A DNA stretch of 46,486 bases, taken from positions 1 through 46,486 of the IMG/VR virus record IMGVR_UViG_3300017565_000009. One strand, written 5' to 3'. Of this stretch, positions 2,950-28,443 are shown piece by piece; position 1 is the first letter of the stretch; each line of letters begins with the position of its first letter. The position numbers were made by a program, and so were the translations under genes. Under the pieces are notes generated by a model. It had not been told where the DNA came from, ran no database searches, and worked only from the letters and a program-made list of their open reading frames with translations. The DNA is from a virus.

Positions 2950-3567
2950 ATGATGACAACAACCCTCGCACAACGATTGCTGGTTGAGGATGATTTGCGG
3001 AAGCGCGCCGGGCGTCTGGTCTACATCCCATGCGACTCCAGTCAGGAGAACGCCAACAAGCGCGGCGCGCTTTGCTGGTGGGGGCGCCGGCGGGGGCTTC
3101 AGTTTGACGAGATCGCCAACATCCTGCAGTGCAGCGAGTCGACGGCGCACCGGCAGTTCCATCGCTTCAACAAGGTGGCCGCGCCAGACGCCTCGCCGGC
3201 CGAAGCGCTCAGGGCATATGAGAAGTTCCTCGCGGCGGGGGTGCGGGATCGGGTGGCCCGGCGTGCGGACAAGAAAGACGAGGATTTCGCCGTGAAATCT
3301 GGAAGCCTTCGGGCCCTTGCGGAAGATGTGGCCGGGATGGTCCCCGATGTCCCGGCGCGGCGCGCGGCGCTCTACTATTGGGCCAACTACCGTATGGGGA
3401 TGTCGCAAGCCGAGGTGGCTCGCGTGTTCGAGCGCAGCCCCACGGATGTCAGCCGGCACGTCCTGGAGGTGCGCGATCGTATCCGCGCCGGATTGGTCAA
3501 GGTCATGCCGGCCGGCGCGCCGGCCTACGTCGTCGCGGATCTTGCCGAACAGATGCGGCCATCGTGA
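2950..3567 (+). CDS. DNA-binding protein with two tandem sigma-70 region-4-like (ECF sigma4-like) HTH domains
   Basis: GLQFDEIANILQCSESTAHRQFHRFNK and GMSQAEVARVFERSPTDVSRHVLEVRDRIRAGL both follow the G-L-S-x-x-E-I-A-x-x-L-x-x-S-x-x-T-V pattern of sigma region 4.2. Confidence 0.6.
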   Translation: MMTTTLAQRLLVEDDLRKRAGRLVYIPCDSSQENANKRGALCWWGRRRGLQFDEIANILQCSESTAHRQFHRFNKVAAPDASPAEALRAYEKFLAAGVRDRVARRADKKDEDFAVKSGSLRALAEDVAGMVPDVPARRAALYYWANYRMGMSQAEVARVFERSPTDVSRHVLEVRDRIRAGLVKVMPAGAPAYVVADLAEQMRPS

Positions 3568-12968: not shown

Positions 12969-13688
12969 TTACTCCAGTGCGGCCCAGGTGGCCGGCCCCA
13001 CCTTACCGTCAACCATCAGCTTGCGCGAGCGCTGGAAGGCTTCCACGGCCTTTTGCGTCAGATCGCCAAAGTCGCCATCTTCCCGCAGTTTGGGGCTGGC
13101 CCCCAGAGCGTTGAGGCGCTGCTGCAGGTATTCGACGTGCGGCCCCAGATGGCCACGAAGGGTGAGAGGGCGCGCGGGTTTGGGTGCGCTTGGGGAGGGT
13201 GGCGGAAGGCGCGCGGGGCTGGCTTTGGTCCACGCCGCCTGGAAGTGCATGCCGTCAGGGTTGCTCCAGTGGCCACCCCATTCCCAGCCCTCAGCCTCAA
13301 AGGCGCGGATGACGAGCGGGTCCATCTTCGGGTTGCGGTTGCCCAGGCCATTGCGGGCCGGGTCAAAGTCCACGGCGCAGCCATAGGAGTGCATGGACAG
13401 TGAGGATCCCGTACGCATGGGCCGGTAGTTGTAGCCCCCACCCCAGTTGCTCATGCCGATGCGGTCAATTTCCGCCTGAGACCTTCCGCAGGCCTCCCAG
13501 ATGGCGTTCAGCACCCGCTTGAGGCTGTCCGCGCACTTGCGGTGGACACGCATCCCGGAGGTCTTTTTGCCATCGTAATAGAGGGTCCAGGGGGCCGGGA
13601 TCGATACCAGATTCGCGGCCTCCCAGGCGGCGGTTCCGGGCACGCCGTAGAAGGTCGGACAGGCGGATTGAAGTGGCCACGTGGTCAT
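12969..13688 (-). CDS. Endolysin: M15-family peptidase with a C-terminal peptidoglycan-binding domain
   Basis: SMHSYGCAVDFD and DGMHF are zinc-peptidase M15 motifs. DGDFGDLTQKAVEAFQ...VDGKVGPATWAAL is PG_binding_1-like. GGAGA RBS before ATG 13688. Confidence 0.85.
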   Translation of the reverse strand: MTTWPLQSACPTFYGVPGTAAWEAANLVSIPAPWTLYYDGKKTSGMRVHRKCADSLKRVLNAIWEACGRSQAEIDRIGMSNWGGGYNYRPMRTGSSLSMHSYGCAVDFDPARNGLGNRNPKMDPLVIRAFEAEGWEWGGHWSNPDGMHFQAAWTKASPARLPPPSPSAPKPARPLTLRGHLGPHVEYLQQRLNALGASPKLREDGDFGDLTQKAVEAFQRSRKLMVDGKVGPATWAALE

Positions 13689-13702
13689 ATTTGGGGTCTC
13701 CG

Positions 13703-13743
13703 TTAATTGCCGGGGGAATATAGCACGTCTCGCCGGCAATTAA
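13703..13743. promoter_or_regulatory. 11-bp perfect inverted repeat, TTAATTGCCGG-N19-CCGGCAATTAA, just upstream of the endolysin RBS
   Basis: Read directly. The spacer contains TATATT on the - strand. Confidence 0.6.
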
Positions 13744-14454
13744 AATGAGGCAACTTTGTGGCGGAGCGTCGTGGCGCAAAATAACAAGTTTTTAATTGCT
13801 GGAGGGCTTTTGGTAACGGTTCCGTGATGTTGGGGGCATATCGTATTGAAGACGTTGAGATATTTTTGGAGATAGGCATAGGTTGTTGAAATCGTTGGGG
13901 AAATTTGGGCTCCTGAATTTTGGTCGAGCGGGACGGCTTGAAGTAAAGGTTCATGAACCAGGGCTTAGGGTACTGTAATTGGCTGATGTTCGTCCGAAAT
14001 CCCACGATCCCACACTTTTTGGCCGGTCAGCCCCATGTGACGAGGGGTAAATGTAACAATGTTGCATTATGACAATCGTTAACTAAAGGATTAACCTTTA
14101 CACGGGGGATTCCGAAAAATATCCGTTTTTCCGTTTTTTTTATTAAATTATATAATAAATAGAATAAGATAACCCTCCCAAACTCAGGATTTTCAAAACC
14201 GTTTTTTTTGTGGGATCGTCCAAAAACACCCCTCTTCAACTCTATTTTCTTAAAGAATTTCAAATACCTAAGCCTTACAAAAATTTGGTTTTCGCGCTCT
14301 CCCCAAATCCCGGGATCGCAAATTGCACCGTGACCATCCCCCACAATGGCCCGTGCGTGTGTTTGGTATCGCCCAGAATTGACGCTTTGAGGGCGTCGGG
14401 TATGATGAGGGCCAGGGGCCGCTTTTAGCCGCTGACGACGCTACCGGAGACAAA
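13744..14454. other. AT-rich region between the divergent lysis and late units, with no convincing gene. Candidate pac/cos site, origin or promoter hub.
   Basis: Hand-counted G+C is about 27-50% per 60-nt line, against above 60% in flanking genes. It has T5-T8 tracts, an AT core at 14140-14170, and an inverted repeat ACGATCCCACA (14004-14014) with TGTGGGATCGT (14209-14219). Confidence 0.6.
14379..14406 (+). promoter_or_regulatory. Sigma70-like promoter in front of the late/packaging operon
   Basis: TTGACG, a 16-nt spacer, then TATGAT. It lies 49 nt upstream of ATG 14455. Confidence 0.55.
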
Positions 14455-14760: not shown

Positions 14761-15509
14761 CGGACCTGTCAGAACCCGAAGAACTGTTCCTCCAGCTCTG
14801 GTCGCAAAGCCGCGACCGGATTGAGTCGTGGCGCGCGGCGTTTCCCGACCGTGACCATCGCCGGCGCCCCGTTTCGGAGCGCATCGCGGAATTGCTCAAA
14901 AGGCCCGAGGTGCGTGCGAGGTGGGAAGAGCTGGAGCTGAAGCGGGCGGAGCGCCTGGGGTTCTCGCGGGAATCGGCCATCCGGATGCTGCTCGACGTGT
15001 GGCATGCGGACGTCAATGAGGTCGTCAGCTTGCGCCGGGGATGCTGCCGGCACTGCCATGGCGAGGATCACCGCTACCAGTGGACGGAAGTTGAATACGC
15101 CGACGCGCTGGCCAAGGCCGCCGCAAACAAACCGGAGCCACTGCCTCCCCCGGATATTGCGGGGGGTTTCGGTTTTGACCACGCGCAGGACCCCCACCCC
15201 GACTGCCCGCAATGCCAGGGAGACGGAGACGCCCGGCTGGTCATGCGTGACACGACGCAGCTCAGCGAGGAAGGACGCCGGCTCTATCTGGGCGTGAGGG
15301 AGCGCAAGGGGGGTCTGGAGGTCGTCATTGCGGACCGGCAGAAGGCGCTGGAGCTGGCGTGCCGGCTCGCCGGGTTCCTTGGGGGTGGCATTGAACAGCT
15401 CATGGGGGCGGCCTTTGCGGGCGTCATGCGCGCCCAGGAGCTGAAAGACCTTGACCCCGAGGCCGCAGCCCGGGCATACCAGAGTATGTTGACGGGACGG
15501 TCAACCTAA
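14757..15509 (+). CDS. terS: Terminase small subunit (with a Cys-rich zinc-ribbon insertion)
   Basis: It lies upstream of terL. The C-terminal ADRQKALELACRLAGFLGG resembles the Terminase_2 family. Cys motifs are CCRHCHG and CPQCQG. Confidence 0.6.
   Translation: MTDLSEPEELFLQLWSQSRDRIESWRAAFPDRDHRRRPVSERIAELLKRPEVRARWEELELKRAERLGFSRESAIRMLLDVWHADVNEVVSLRRGCCRHCHGEDHRYQWTEVEYADALAKAAANKPEPLPPPDIAGGFGFDHAQDPHPDCPQCQGDGDARLVMRDTTQLSEEGRRLYLGVRERKGGLEVVIADRQKALELACRLAGFLGGGIEQLMGAAFAGVMRAQELKDLDPEAAARAYQSMLTGRST
15489..15504. promoter_or_regulatory. Palindrome S3, TTGACGGGACGGTCAA, the exact reverse complement of S4
   Basis: It lies in the last 7 codons of terS and ends 2 nt before the TAA stop. 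Confidence 0.6.
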
Positions 15510-15739: not shown

Positions 15740-16107
15740 CGCCCGAGGATTATGAGCGAGAGCTGGCGCGCAAAGACAATGAGTTAGAGGCAATCAAAGC
15801 CCTGCTCATGACGCAGGCCGTCCCTGACGAGGTAAAGCGCTTGCAAAATGATCTGGCGGCGGCGTTGGGGGACATAGCGAGCCTGAGAGCGTCCGCGCGG
15901 GACGTGGATGGCGGGCTTGATCAGGCGACCGGGCAACACGAGGCGGAAATAGCGGCGCTGGAGGACGAGCACGCCAAAGACTGGGAGCCGATAGAGGGGG
16001 CAGTTGAGGACCTTTGCGTGTCGTTCGGCCTGCCGCGCCGCCCGTCTCCTGTGGACCTGTGCCGCTGGCCGGCGCTCAAAAGACTGGTGGACCTTGTCCA
16101 GCTTTAA
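15736..16107 (+). CDS. Hypothetical coiled-coil protein (123 aa)
   Basis: ORF in series with ATGA coupling. Confidence 0.55.
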   Translation: MTPEDYERELARKDNELEAIKALLMTQAVPDEVKRLQNDLAAALGDIASLRASARDVDGGLDQATGQHEAEIAALEDEHAKDWEPIEGAVEDLCVSFGLPRRPSPVDLCRWPALKRLVDLVQL

Positions 16108-17692
16108 TCCCGACTACGCCGCAATTTATCAGGAGCGCATGCAGCGGCTGGAGTATATCCGGGCCAACCCGGAGCAACTCCCACTGCTGAAACGCTATTA
16201 TCGCGAAAACATCGCGCAATTTATTGACGACTGGGGGATGACATACGACCCCCGTAACGCCGACATCGGGTTGCCGCCGGTCGTGCCCTTCGTTCTGTTT
16301 CCAAAGCAACGGGAATGGATCGAAAAGGTTATCTGGTGCTGGAAAAATCGGGTGCCTTTGACCACGGAGAAGAGCCGCGACGCCGGCGTGTCCTGGCTGG
16401 CGGTCTCGACGGCCAGCAGTCTGTGCCTGTTCCACAATGACCTGGCCATCGGCTTCGGGTCGCGCAAGGCCGAATACGTCGACCGGCTGGGATTCCCAAA
16501 ATCTCTGTTCTTCAAGGGCCGCATGTTCCTGCGGATGCTTCCGCCGGAGTTTCTGGACGGCTGGGACGAAAAGCGCCATTCGCCCCTCATGCGCATCAGT
16601 TTCCCGGGGACCGGATCAGTCATCAGCGGCGAGGCAGGCGACGGCATAGGCCGTGGCGATCGGTCGTCTCTCTATTTCGTTGACGAATCGGCTTGGCTGG
16701 AACGTCCGGAACTGGCCGACGCCGGTCTGTCCGCGACGACCAATTGCCGTATCGACATTTCGTCAGTCAACGGCATGGACAATCCATTTGCCGTCAAGCG
16801 CTGGTCCGGTAAATATGAGGTCTTCACATTTCACTGGCGCGACGACCCGCGCAAGGATGACGCCTGGTATGCGCGCCAGTGTGAGCTGCTGGCCGCCAAC
16901 ATCGTCGCGCAGGAAATCGACATCGACTATCACGCATCGACGGAAGGCAAGCTGATTGAGGCGGCGTGGGTTGAGGCCGCCATTGGCGCCGCCGCCAAAC
17001 TGGGCATTCCGCTCCGGGGCCGCAGGCGCGCCGCGCTCGACATCGCTGATGAAGGCAAAGACCTTAACTCCTGGGCGATGGCCGAGGGCATCCAGCTTGA
17101 GCACCTTCAGAGCTGGAGCGGCAAGGGCGGCGACATTTACAAGACGGCGGTCCGGGCGTTCGACCTGTGCGACGAGCACGGAATCGAAGACCAGAGCTAT
17201 GACGCCGACGGTTTGGGGGCCGGCTTCCGTGGCGATGCGCGCGTCATCAACGACAGGCGGGGCCGGGGCCGCGAGATTAACGCAACGGCCTTCAGGGGAT
17301 CCGGAGCCGTGCAGGACCCGGAGAAACCGATCCCCACCGCCGCTCCTGCCGGAAAGACATTCCGCCGGAGCGAATCGCGGACCAACGAGGATTATTTCGC
17401 CAACGCCAAGGCGCAAGCGTGGTGGAATCTCCGCGTCAAATTCCAGCGCACCGCGCGCGCCGTCGAGGCAGGGAGCATTGAAGGGTATGACCCGGACGAC
17501 CTGATCAGCATCAACCCGGATTTGCCCGAATTGAACAAGCTTCGCATGGAGTTGGGGCAGGTCACTTATGAGCTGACGGACGTCGGACGCGTCAAGGTCG
17601 TCAAGACGCCAGATGGCATGTCGAGCCCCAACCGCGCCGACGCCGTCATGATCCTCAACGCCCCACGCAAAACTCACTGGAGTCGGGCTTGA
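16094..17692 (+). CDS. terL: Terminase large subunit. The start is uncertain: TTG 16094 or ATG 16139.
   Basis: ATPase motifs are KSRDAGVSW (Walker A-like) and LYFVDESAW (Walker B). A C-terminal nuclease-size domain is present. Position is next to terS. Confidence 0.85.
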   Translation: MSSFNPDYAAIYQERMQRLEYIRANPEQLPLLKRYYRENIAQFIDDWGMTYDPRNADIGLPPVVPFVLFPKQREWIEKVIWCWKNRVPLTTEKSRDAGVSWLAVSTASSLCLFHNDLAIGFGSRKAEYVDRLGFPKSLFFKGRMFLRMLPPEFLDGWDEKRHSPLMRISFPGTGSVISGEAGDGIGRGDRSSLYFVDESAWLERPELADAGLSATTNCRIDISSVNGMDNPFAVKRWSGKYEVFTFHWRDDPRKDDAWYARQCELLAANIVAQEIDIDYHASTEGKLIEAAWVEAAIGAAAKLGIPLRGRRRAALDIADEGKDLNSWAMAEGIQLEHLQSWSGKGGDIYKTAVRAFDLCDEHGIEDQSYDADGLGAGFRGDARVINDRRGRGREINATAFRGSGAVQDPEKPIPTAAPAGKTFRRSESRTNEDYFANAKAQAWWNLRVKFQRTARAVEAGSIEGYDPDDLISINPDLPELNKLRMELGQVTYELTDVGRVKVVKTPDGMSSPNRADAVMILNAPRKTHWSRA

Positions 17693-17716
17693 CCGTCCCG
17701 TCAATTGCGGTATGGT
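17689..17716 (+). promoter_or_regulatory. Palindrome S4 (TTGACCGTCCCGTCAA, 17689-17704) with a -10-like TATGGT. Putative promoter firing into the terL-portal gap.
   Basis: TTGACC, a 16-nt spacer, then TATGGT. It overlaps the terL stop codon. Confidence 0.45.
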
Positions 17717-18073
17717 CACGGTAGCGAAGTCAATGTGTATCGGCAGGCAGACGACGGAGGCCCGGCCATGTAGCCCAAACCCCGGCAAGCCATCAGCGAT
17801 GACGAGAACCGAAGTTGGGAACGGTTAGAATTGAGCGGACATGGGGAGCCGCAATTACCCAACACTCCCCTTTGAAATTCAGAACGCGTTATGGGCCGGG
17901 CGTATCCCCCGGGGGCTCGTCGTGGGGTCCAACCGTAACGCGCCCGGCTTCAGGCGTCTGAACCGTCCGGGCCGGGACCAATTGTAAAGTGCTGGAGAGG
18001 ACGACTCAAAGTCAGGTTAGGTTTTTCCGGGCTTTTCCCAATCTTTGAACGGACCGCCAGTGCTTTACGATGC

Positions 18074-18113
18074 GCCCCCTCCGGACCACTCTTCTGGAGG
18101 GGGCTTTTATTTT
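18074..18113 (+). terminator. Strong rho-independent terminator
   Basis: GCCCCCTCC pairs with GGAGGGGGC and the stem extends to 12 bp. The loop is 7 nt. TTTTATTTT follows. Confidence 0.8.
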
Positions 18114-18125
18114 GGGAGGAACGGA

Positions 18126-18320
18126 ATGCCATCAAAGCCGCCAAGTCAAAAGAGTCCGTCAACTCTGGAACGGGCTTCCATCATCTTGCTGGATCGCTTG
18201 TGGGCCGCCGCTGCGCGGCTTTACGCCCCGGACCCCGCCACGCTCGACACCCGGTTTGCCGATTTCAGCCGGCGACTGGACGCGGCGCTGGCGCGCAGGC
18301 ATACTGCTCCGCGCTGCTAG
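18126..18320 (+). CDS. Hypothetical 64-aa protein bracketed by two terminators
   Basis: GGGAGGA RBS 5 nt before ATG 18126. Confidence 0.55.
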   Translation: MPSKPPSQKSPSTLERASIILLDRLWAAAARLYAPDPATLDTRFADFSRRLDAALARRHTAPRC

Positions 18321-18348
18321 GTATGATGGTTGTGTTTGTGTCACCCCC

Positions 18349-18384
18349 AGCCCGCCCCACGCCACGGGGCGGGCTTTACTTTTT
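18349..18384 (+). terminator. Rho-independent terminator immediately upstream of the portal gene
   Basis: 10-bp stem AGCCCGCCCC with GGGGCGGGCT, a 7-nt loop, then TTACTTTTT. Confidence 0.8.
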
Positions 18385-18410
18385 GACGGGGCTGTCGGCA
18401 TATTCCCTGC

Positions 18411-19934
18411 ATGTGGCCATTTCGCAAATCCCCAGCACCGACGCCCGCCCCCGAGCCCAAGCCGGCGCGCTGGGAACAGGCGTTTTCTACCGACCTTCTG
18501 CAGGACGGGGAGGCGCGCGCGCGGGCCCTGCGGCTCAAGCAGGCCATTCTCGACGCCCAGCCGCCGACGTCGCGCACCAGCGCCATGGATGCGTGCGTGT
18601 TCCCCGAGGGCGAGAACGGCGCCGACGACGGGTCAATTCCGGACGCCGTTCTGGGGTGGTTTACGTCCGGGCAGTTTCTCGGCTACCAAAATCTCGCGGT
18701 AATCGCCCAGAACTGGCTGATCGACAAGGCGTGCGCCATGCCGGCGCGCGACGCGGTTCGCCACGGGTTCGATCTGACGCTGTCCGACGCCGGCGGTCAG
18801 GAAGAGTCCGGGGATCTGGAGAAGCGGATCAACGAGTTGAACCGCGAACAGTTCGCCTTGAGCAAACATCTCGTTGAGTTTGTGCGGTTCGGTCGGGTGT
18901 TCGGCATTCGCCACGTGCTGTTCGACGTGCGGCCGAAGGGTGTCAACATCAACACGTGGCGCGAAAACCCCTTCAATTTCGACGCCGTATCGCCGGGGTC
19001 CTACAGGGGCCTCGTGCAGATTGATCCCTACTGGATGGCGCCGGAAATGTCGGCCGTGGGAACGTCCGATCCGACGGACCCCGACTTCTATGAGCCAGAA
19101 TGGTGGAATGTCATGGGGCGGCGCATCCACCGTTCCCACTTCGCCATCTTCGTCCCTAACCCGATCGCGGACATCCTGAAGCCGCTCTATCTCTATGGCG
19201 GCGTCAGCGTCCCCCAGCGCATCCTGGAGCGCGTCTACGCGGCGGAGCGCACGGCCAATGAGGCGCCGCAGCTCGCCATGAGCAAGCGCCTTGACGTGCT
19301 CAAGACTGATCTGGCTGGCGTCATGGCCAATCACGAGAATTTCCAGCAGAACATGCAGTTCCGGTCCCGGAACATGAACAATTACGGCATCCAGGTGGTC
19401 GACTCGGACGATACGCTGGAACGTCACGACACGGCGCTGACGGACCTGGACGTCACCGTGATGACGCAGTATCAGCTCGTCGCGGCGGCGGCCAACGTGC
19501 CGGCTACCAAACTTCTGGGAACGACCCCCAAGGGCTTTAACGCCACCGGTGAGTATGAGGAATCCAGCTATCACGAAGAGTTGGAGACCATCCAGAATAA
19601 CGATCTGACGCCGTTGGTAGAGCGGCACATTCAGTTGCTCATGAAATCCGAGGGGCTGGACGACAGCGATGAAATCAAAATCGTCGTCAACTGGCTCCCG
19701 GTCGACAGCCCGACCGCCAAGGAAGTGGCAGAAATCCAGGAGCTGGAGAGCCGTCGTGACGTCAACCTGGTCAACGCTGGCGCCATTGACGGGCTGGACG
19801 TGCGCAACCGGCTTATTGCGGACCGGCGTAGCGGCTACGCGGATCTGAGCGAAGAGACGGAAGCGGACGAGGGAGAGATTGACGACCGGCCGCCCGGCGA
19901 CATCCCGGAGGAAACCGTTGGCAAAAGCTCCTGA
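18411..19934 (+). CDS. Portal protein
   Basis: 507 aa. Located between terL and the MuF-like head morphogenesis gene. Acidic C-terminus. Confidence 0.75.
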   Translation: MWPFRKSPAPTPAPEPKPARWEQAFSTDLLQDGEARARALRLKQAILDAQPPTSRTSAMDACVFPEGENGADDGSIPDAVLGWFTSGQFLGYQNLAVIAQNWLIDKACAMPARDAVRHGFDLTLSDAGGQEESGDLEKRINELNREQFALSKHLVEFVRFGRVFGIRHVLFDVRPKGVNINTWRENPFNFDAVSPGSYRGLVQIDPYWMAPEMSAVGTSDPTDPDFYEPEWWNVMGRRIHRSHFAIFVPNPIADILKPLYLYGGVSVPQRILERVYAAERTANEAPQLAMSKRLDVLKTDLAGVMANHENFQQNMQFRSRNMNNYGIQVVDSDDTLERHDTALTDLDVTVMTQYQLVAAAANVPATKLLGTTPKGFNATGEYEESSYHEELETIQNNDLTPLVERHIQLLMKSEGLDDSDEIKIVVNWLPVDSPTAKEVAEIQELESRRDVNLVNAGAIDGLDVRNRLIADRRSGYADLSEETEADEGEIDDRPPGDIPEETVGKSS

Positions 19935-23669: not shown

Positions 23670-23698
23670 GGGGGCCCTTCGGGGGCCCCTCTTTATTT
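23670..23698 (+). terminator. Rho-independent terminator after the major capsid gene
   Basis: GGGGGCCC pairs with GGGCCCCT (8 bp), followed by CTTTATTT. Confidence 0.75.
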
Positions 23699-23710
23699 GG
23701 AGAACCGCAA

Positions 23711-24103
23711 GTGAGCAAAGACCTCTACGTTTACAGCACCCTGACCACGGACATGGACTATACGGCCTACCGCAAGGGCGGCGGCGACGTTCCGGTGGCC
23801 GAGGTGTCGGTGCGCATCAACGGCGGCGCCAACCTCGCCAACAAGCACCTCGTCACCCCGCGTGGCGTCGTGACCCGCGTCACTCCGGAACAGGCGGAGA
23901 TCCTGCGCGAGAACCTGGTGTTCCAGCTTCACGAAAAGAACGGCTACGTCAGCATCAGCGAGAAGCAGGAGGACCCCGAGAAGGTCGTGGCCGAGGGCAT
24001 GGAAGCCCGCGCGCCGGACGCCCCACTGGAGCCGGGCGACTATGAGGCGGCGCCCGAGGCCGTGGCCAAGCCGGCCGCCACGAAGCCCAGCCGAAAGGCT
24101 TGA
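23711..24103 (+). CDS. Hypothetical virion-module protein (130 aa), GTG start
   Basis: GGAGA RBS 7 nt before GTG. Confidence 0.6.
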   Translation: MSKDLYVYSTLTTDMDYTAYRKGGGDVPVAEVSVRINGGANLANKHLVTPRGVVTRVTPEQAEILRENLVFQLHEKNGYVSISEKQEDPEKVVAEGMEARAPDAPLEPGDYEAAPEAVAKPAATKPSRKA

Positions 24104-27937: not shown

Positions 27938-27977
27938 GGGGCCGGCGCCGCTACTATGCGCCGGCCCCTTACTTTTT
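27938..27977 (+). terminator. Rho-independent terminator after the tube gene
   Basis: 11-bp stem GGGGCCGGCGC with GCGCCGGCCCC, followed by TTACTTTTT. Confidence 0.8.
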
Positions 27978-27993
27978 GCGCGGAAGGCAAAGC

Positions 27994-28443
27994 ATGGAAC
28001 TGATCAACCCCAAAGAGGTGGAAGTCACGCGCCAGGACGGCTCGACGGCCACTTATCTCATCGGCAAATACCCCGCCATTGCCGGCCGGGAAATCGTCAC
28101 TCAGTATCCGGTCAACAACATCCCCAAGCTGTCGGAATACCACGCCAGCGAAGAGGTGATGCTGAAGTTGATGCAATTCGTGGCCATCCAGCCCGCCGGC
28201 GAAGACGCGCAGCCCATCATTCTCCGCACCCGGGCCCTGGTGGATAATCACGCGGGGGACTGGGAGACCCTGGCGCGGCTGGAGTGGGCGTCGTTGGAGT
28301 ATAATTGCAGTTTTTTCGGGAAAGGCTCCCCCTCCGATATCTTTCAGGAGTGGAGCCAGAAGATTATACAGTCGATTGTCCAAACGTTGACGGCTTCATT
28401 GCGGCCCTCATCTCCAGCGGCAAGGCAACGCTCCGGGAGCTGA
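27994..28443 (+). CDS. Tail assembly chaperone (gpG-like)
   Basis: Position between the tube and tape measure genes. It contains the slippery heptamer. Confidence 0.75.
   Translation: MELINPKEVEVTRQDGSTATYLIGKYPAIAGREIVTQYPVNNIPKLSEYHASEEVMLKLMQFVAIQPAGEDAQPIILRTRALVDNHAGDWETLARLEWASLEYNCSFFGKGSPSDIFQEWSQKIIQSIVQTLTASLRPSSPAARQRSGS

Follow-up and report, generated by a model that had tools for sequence, protein, structure and literature searches.

Morons, as defined in HK97 and HK022, are inserts between adjacent late-operon genes that are absent from relatives. Their features include a promoter of their own, a factor-independent terminator downstream of the gene and an atypical composition, and the slot that they occupy varies in content among relatives, holding different small open reading frames (ORFs). 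The usual rationale for a moron is expression from a prophage. Internal partial terminators also occur in phage late operons (e.g., T-phi of T7, after the capsid gene), and T4-type phages carry repeat-flanked gene cassettes with promoter-early stem-loops (PeSLs). In leader-peptide and riboswitch attenuators, a long untranslated leader ends in a terminator just before the next Shine-Dalgarno (SD) sequence. The ant moron of P22-like phages also holds a small RNA (sar), and it changes how often polymerases from the late promoter reach the downstream gene (PMC2629481). This report concerns a 718-bp interval between the terL and portal genes of IMG/VR virus record IMGVR_UViG_3300017565_000009, a complete virus genome with terminal repeats that was analysed at its full length of 46,486 bp (the window). 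Our best explanation, which we put at somewhat below an even chance, is that the interval is a lineage-specific, moron-like accessory insertion at a terL|portal mosaic junction, and that its two terminators throttle the head genes. The interval is not a demonstrated new RNA element.

The terL gene (16004 or 16094 to 17692) matches phrog_2, and the portal gene (18411-19934) matches PF06381; the portal start at 18411 is backed by the portals of relatives, which align from residue 2. The measured separation of 718 bp agrees with the distance of about 720 bp from terL stop to portal start given in an earlier note on this DNA, which was made from the letters alone. That note also remarked that the two genes usually abut, and they do abut or overlap in about 15 of 17 distant viral relatives (viral contigs with 43-52% portal identity). 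The exceptions among relatives with both a terminase ORF and a portal are two contigs, L011 and L016, in which the slot is occupied by unrelated ORFs of 80 and 86 amino acids (aa). TerL relatives with up to 59% identity are found in Pseudomonas, Xenorhabdus and Rhodanobacter genomes, where they are mostly followed by a different portal type; in the prophage-like loci L019-L032 (Pseudomonas, Xenorhabdus, Paludibacterium and Rhodanobacter) TerL identity is 53-59%, and most of these loci have no portal of this family downstream. Because related TerL genes are followed by different portal types and the slot in L011 and L016 holds unrelated ORFs, the terL|portal junction is a mosaic boundary at which small accessory genes land repeatedly. 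The gap sequence itself is carried by no relative examined: searches with blastn and tblastx against all 43 fetched relative loci gave chance-level matches only, and blastn against phage and plasmid collections gave no match. Portal and TerL searches of viral, metagenome and genome contigs found no closer phage relative above 59% protein identity. Portal identity among known relatives is either about 50% or about 99%, with none between about 52% and 99%, and the relatives at about 99% are in Logan contigs. In L011 the TerL homologue (712-2251) is split over two reading frames at about 1080-1085, either by a frameshift or by an assembly error.

The edges of the insert, its two terminators and its single well-formed gene are the following:

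17689-17704, no strand assigned: S4, a perfect copy of the palindrome TTGAC-N6-GTCAA, which overlaps the terL stop codon TGA (17690-17692) and forms the left edge of the insert.
18074-18113, plus strand: T1, an intrinsic terminator with a hairpin at 18074-18104, a 12-bp stem and the tract UUUUAUUUU; -25.9 kcal/mol, z-score (z) -4.5.
18114-18320, plus strand: an SD sequence, GGGAGGA (18114-18120), and ORF64 (18126-18320), encoding an orphan basic protein of 64 aa with a predicted two-helix hairpin.
18349-18384, plus strand: T2, an intrinsic terminator with a hairpin at 18349-18375, an all-Watson-Crick stem of 10 bp and the tract UUUACUUUUU; -25.7 kcal/mol, z -3.6.
18383-18398, no strand assigned: S4', a degenerate copy of the palindrome, TTGACGGGGCTGTCGG, with two arm mismatches, which lies 12 nt before the portal ATG and forms the right edge of the insert.

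Both terminators had been proposed in the earlier note, T1 with its 12-bp stem and T2 as a second strong site, and both were recovered by scanning and folding. They rank first and second in a terminator scan of the 46.5-kb genome and have the most stem pairs and the most G-C pairs of any site. T2 begins 28 nt past the ORF64 stop and supplies the factor-independent terminator expected downstream of a moron gene; the portal ATG follows about 25 nt past the T2 tail. The exact T1 pattern was found in no viral contig. The layout in which a terminator is followed immediately by an SD sequence is not confined to T1, since it recurs after the capsid gene (23670-23713) and the tube gene (27938-27996), with the SD and start codon of the next gene within about 10-20 nt, and the bona fide late genes that start at 23711 and 27994 follow it. 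All head and tail genes thus lie behind four strong intrinsic terminators, with no room for promoters.

ORF64 is probably a real gene. A GGGAGGA ribosome-binding site directly after T1, followed by a 64-aa ORF, had been noticed earlier from the letters and is confirmed, with the SD sequence 5 nt before the ATG. Elsewhere in this genome, GGAGG with an ATG at 5-9 nt and an ORF of at least 60 aa is found 15 times, and 14 of these sites are true gene starts. The central codon window of ORF64 beats 97.7% of shuffles. An AlphaFold2 model, made from the single sequence with no alignment, is a two-helix hairpin (helices 13-32 and 37-60) with a predicted local distance difference test (pLDDT) score of 77.5, and its structural neighbors in the ESM Atlas are generic helical hairpins. 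Codon use is atypical: the codon log-likelihood ratio (LLR) is -0.08 per codon for ORF64, as compared with +0.41 for the phage's genes and -0.36 for off-frame ORFs. The sole relative of the protein, in searches of 5.8 billion and 1.84 billion proteins, is one variant with 97% identity. ORF64 has no match in Pfam or PHROGs, toxin families included; the back-translated sequence was not found in viral, metagenome and genome collections; and among viral structures searched with the model, none had a similar fold at E < 1. A type III toxin-antitoxin system resembling ToxIN was considered and dropped, there being no tandem RNA repeats upstream of the terminator and no toxin-family match for ORF64.

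Copies of the S palindrome bracket the insert, perfect on the left and degenerate on the right. Genome-wide, TTGAC-N6-GTCAA occurs five times in perfect form and once with an N7 spacer, as compared with 0.18 expected. S4' was found among sites with up to two mismatches and forms an inverted repeat (I1) with 17691-17704; we estimate the chance of an S-like site in its slot at about 2-3%. S-type sites lie at 1185, 5907, 14639, 15489, 17689, 34392, 40810, 42580 and 44746, in each case at a junction between cistrons. S4 and S5 overlap the upstream stop codon, and S2, S3 and S8 are 1-3 nt away from it; the sites are positioned 3-45 nt ahead of the next gene start, just before the next SD sequence, with no common -10 element. 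By its distribution, the motif looks like an intercistronic signal, either a protein-binding site or an RNA hairpin, more than a promoter, and the copies that flank the insert may mark sites of cassette exchange. A candidate reader of the palindrome is a 205-aa protein (2950-3567) with two weak matches to sigma-70 region 4 or helix-turn-helix motifs (residues 48-75 and 147-171). S3 (15489-15504) and S4 are exact reverse complements and make a perfect 16-bp inverted repeat, 2.2 kb apart, that encloses two small genes and terL. Two further interpretations of these sequences, as a cos or pac site and as a mobile element bounded by terminal inverted repeats, were considered and dropped, the "repeats" being copies of the genome-wide S motif.

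The earlier note had read S4 and the TATGGT downstream of it as a promoter, TTGACC-16-TATGGT, and this proposal is not supported. The match to the consensus is only 9 of 12 positions, and five such sites were found as compared with 4.9 expected in 20 kb of shuffled sequence. Furthermore, the proposed -35 element (TTGAC) is one arm of the S palindrome, and the other S copies have no -10 at that spacing. Because S4 is one copy of a palindrome that recurs at cistron junctions without a shared -10, it is most simply read as a junction element, and TATGGT as a coincidence. This candidate (17689-17716), at chance level, is the sole one upstream of the insert's genes in a scan that leaves out phage-specific promoter types. 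No promoter fits between T1 and ORF64, because T1 abuts the ORF64 SD sequence. On the minus strand, a promoter at 18009-17981 was considered and dropped as being at chance level.

If the interval is a moron-like insertion, the 380 nt that precede ORF64 would be untranslated RNA made by read-through from terL, at once the terL trailer and the ORF64 leader. Transcription from terL would mostly end at T1, and the resulting RNA 3' end would be protected by T1 and by the long hairpin directly upstream of it (SL-A, described below). The fraction of polymerases that reads past T1 would allow ORF64 to be translated into a small, basic, two-helix protein, and most of these polymerases would end at T2. 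Because no promoter fits in the 25 nt before portal, the portal and head genes would be expressed only by polymerases that pass both T1 and T2. In effect, the insert would throttle transcription in two steps on its way from the packaging genes to the head genes.

The insert resembles described morons in that it lies between late-operon genes that are adjacent in relatives and is absent from those relatives, the slot holds different small ORFs in different relatives, a factor-independent terminator lies downstream, and the composition is atypical. The proposed side effect on downstream late transcription also has a precedent in the P22 ant moron (PMC2629481). Unlike morons, the insert has no credible promoter of its own, and over half of it is without coding signal. 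The phage also has its own DNA polymerase, primase and helicase and no integrase, so that prophage expression is unlikely. Of the interpretations offered in the earlier note, a pair of moron-like mini-genes fits best for the second unit (SD, ORF64 and T2), which is absent from relatives and has a gene-start context and atypical codons, and falls short in the missing promoter. In common with terminators of the T7 T-phi type, T1 and T2 are strong hairpins with U-tracts within a late operon, followed immediately by the next cistron, as is also seen after the capsid and tube genes of this phage. In contrast to that type, T1 and T2 are upstream of head genes that need high expression and bracket an orphan gene rather than following an abundant structural gene. 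The insert also recalls PeSL cassettes, in which a short repeated palindrome at gene junctions flanks a lineage-specific insert of small ORFs; the S motif differs from PeSLs in its sequence, TTGAC-N6-GTCAA, in its location between a stop codon and the next SD, and in having no consistent -10.

A moron-like insertion is supported by the S copies at both edges and by the first unit (17693-18113), which is poor in ORFs and has neither coding signal nor homologues. Several observations weigh against this reading. Codon periodicity in ORF64 is weak (G+C of 0.64, 0.62 and 0.70 at the first, second and third codon positions), and it is rejected by a crude gene caller based on codon use, which does accept other genes of 48-72 aa. 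The protein is a strict orphan, and an exhaustive HMMER search of 1.84 billion representatives returned only its own cluster. Its variant differs at 2 of 64 residues (3%), as compared with 4 of 507 (0.8%) for the portal variants, a difference that may reflect relaxed constraint. The search for a promoter of the cassette found none, so that one classic moron feature is missing, and in a phage without an integrase the rationale of prophage expression does not apply. Finally, two strong terminators before highly expressed head genes look costly for a passenger, and a regulatory role is conceivable.

The first unit is treated as non-coding. The claim that 17693-18125 contains no ORF of 60 aa or more holds; the longest stop-free run there, in six frames, is 77 codons, a length that ranks the interval among the bottom 0.7% of all 433-nt windows of the genome. 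The best 25-codon window of the unit is equalled by 8% of shuffles, so that no coding signal rises above shuffled sequence. Pfam and PHROGs gave nothing credible on six read-through frames. Word-based homologue searches of 5.8 billion proteins with ORF48 and with the terL-frame read-through found nothing, and the spacer that opens the unit has no 5-mer homologue. A minus-strand PHROG match (function unknown, E 0.014) falls on an ORF that overlaps T1 and was dismissed. The features of the unit upstream of T1 are the following:

17705-17877, plus strand: a spacer with no coding signal and no unusual fold, which holds GGAGG (17756-17760) and then ATG-TAG (17768-17773).
17841-17987, plus strand: ORF48, a doubtful ORF without an SD sequence, whose stop codon (17985) is at the foot of the hairpin SL-A.
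17880-17960, plus strand: SL-B, a branched, GC-rich hairpin of which the GCCGGGCG/CGCCCGGC stem is a part; -41.6 kcal/mol, z -2.2 on the plus strand and -0.6 on the minus strand.
17981-18072, plus strand: SL-A, a long, imperfect hairpin immediately 5' of T1, whose basal stem has 15 bp, three of them G-U pairs; -35.6 kcal/mol.

A micro-protein encoded by ORF48 had been left open in the earlier note on the strength of hand-counted G+C values. Those values are correct (0.75 at third and 0.54 at second codon positions), and the micro-protein itself fares poorly: ORF48 has no SD sequence, no homologue and a borderline codon score (LLR +0.06 per codon, equalled or bettered by 8.8% of off-frame ORFs), its AlphaFold2 model is mostly coil (pLDDT 64), and no public assembly calls it as a gene. 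The codon LLR of another small frame, ORF38, is -0.21 per codon. In the spacer, the GGAGG and the ATG-TAG 7 nt downstream of it (17756-17773) represent either a mini-ORF made up of a start and a stop codon or a small gene inactivated at its second codon; by our estimate, about 0.2 such sites are expected genome-wide. The heptamer GGAACGG has three copies in the gap region (17818, 18118 and 18167) of nine on the genome plus strand, with GAACGG at 18047; one of the three lies between the SD sequence and the ATG of ORF64.

As RNA, the whole 423-nt unit folds marginally better than shuffles on the plus strand (z -1.87; +0.13 on the minus strand), and its 5' third (17700-17835; z +1.4) is no better than shuffles. 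The fold is concentrated at the 3' end. SL-A is strand-specific (z -4.0 on the plus strand vs -1.4 on the minus strand), an asymmetry due to its G-U pairs, and SL-A and T1 together reach z -5.3. When 100-nt windows are ranked by stability across the genome, SL-A does not reach the top 30, and it is unusual rather than exceptional. All three complementarities listed in the earlier note exist; a mildly unusual fold is seen only for the 17895/17941 stem (z -2.2), and the GGGGAG/CTCCCC pairing is ordinary (z -0.9). Predictions for the nascent transcript give a probability of 0.65-0.81 for a helix between the T1 5' arm and 17966-17976, at the foot of SL-A; this helix would extend the base of SL-A and is a possible weak antiterminator. 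An Rfam scan had been suggested as a check, and it gave no match at gathering score in the whole window; with a permissive E-value, matches on the region are terminator-driven noise. The best sub-threshold matches are at most 24 bits and cover terminators only (e.g., PyrG_leader, with 24 bits where 65 are required). Tandem or multi-copy direct repeats in 17600-18450 are absent, the only repeats there being short two-copy matches.

The discrete RNA of about 390 nt that the earlier note predicted for the first unit is supported at its 3' end only, where T1 is preceded by a strand-specific 95-nt hairpin; its promoter is at chance level and Rfam is blank. A regulatory small RNA spanning 17693-18113, either initiated near S4 or processed from the 3' untranslated region of terL, with an unstructured targeting region at its 5' end and with SL-B, SL-A and T1 as its structured 3' part, is on this evidence unlikely. 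It would account for a unit without coding signal that ends in a strong terminator, for the strand-asymmetric fold of SL-A with T1, and for the unstructured 5' third, as is often seen in small RNA seed regions. Yet besides the missing promoter and Rfam match, the z-score of the unit as a whole is modest, SL-A falls outside the 30 most stable windows of this genome, complementarity to other phage transcripts is at chance level, and the sequence is without conservation outside the lineage. More doubtful still is control of ORF64, portal and the head genes by a cis-acting attenuator, in which the T1 5' arm would pair with 17966-17976 as an antiterminator before the T1 3' arm is made, and a ribosome finishing ORF48, or a bound factor, would pick the antiterminator helix or T1. 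The predicted pairing probability, the position of T1 directly ahead of the ORF64 SD, the obligatory read-through of T1 and T2 with no promoter room before portal, and an ORF48 stop codon exactly where the two helices meet are all consistent with such a device, and it would share with leader-peptide and riboswitch attenuators the long untranslated leader ending in a terminator just before the next SD, along with a competing helix. Against this, ORF48 has no SD sequence, is long for a leader peptide and has weak coding support, and neither a recognizable SD-bearing leader peptide nor a matching leader or riboswitch family in Rfam was found. With its 5 + 3 bp, the alternative helix falls far short of T1 (-25.9 kcal/mol) in strength, DNA of 60% G+C is rich in short CCGG-type complementarities, no comparable upstream device is seen at T2, T3 or T4, and comparative support is absent.

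The interval may instead be a recombination scar, or a set of decayed accessory genes without present function, in which ORF64 and ORF48 arose by chance and the terminators are what remains of earlier cassettes; we regard this as unlikely, to the same degree as the small RNA. The complete absence of homologues, the atypical codon use throughout and the greater divergence of the ORF64 variant than of the portal variants are as expected of decay, as is an SD sequence followed by ATG-TAG (17756-17773), which resembles a gene killed at codon 2. Near 17810 the best-scoring frame also changes from +2 to +0, which is what a frameshifted remnant would show, but the frame signal in 17693-18073 is not above shuffles (8% score as high), and a decayed gene with a frameshift was dropped on that ground. 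It is also unlikely that the SD sequence of ORF64, its spacing and its exact fit between two intact strong terminators would persist in junk, and phage genomes are under packaging-size pressure, with all other late-gene junctions here shorter than 100 nt. A further reading, the least probable of these, is a dedicated transcriptional gate, in which a structured leader (SL-B, SL-A and the competing helix) would set read-through of T1 and T2 and so time or dose the portal and head genes relative to terminase, possibly with ORF64 as a protein partner; if true, this would be a form of processive antitermination or attenuation for which the late operons of virulent myoviruses offer no described example so far.

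A moron-like accessory insertion, the reading preferred here, would if true be a further case of an orphan accessory cassette located where two phage modules meet. An annotation of this genome should retain ORF64, leave ORF48 uncalled and mark T1 and T2. Because all head and tail genes lie behind four terminators without promoter room, the phage either tolerates heavy attenuation or carries an antitermination mechanism.

The genome in which the insert resides is that of a probably virulent myovirus, since a search of the genome for a tyrosine integrase found none. Its replication and modification genes include primase, helicase, DNA polymerase, a Gp2.5-like single-stranded DNA-binding protein, methyltransferases and nucleotide-modifying enzymes, and its late region encodes the small terminase, TerL, portal, a Mu-F-like protein, protease, capsid, sheath and tail proteins. 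A tRNA and tmRNA scan of the genome found none. On a crude codon-based gene map the genes are tightly packed, and only two stretches of more than 700 bp are without coding signal, the terL-portal gap and 13644-14454, which separates the divergent lysis and packaging units. The top sigma-70-like promoter of the genome (TTGACG-16-TATGAT, 10 of 12 positions, at 14379-14406) lies in the latter gap, upstream of the packaging genes, and is likely the start of the late or packaging operon.

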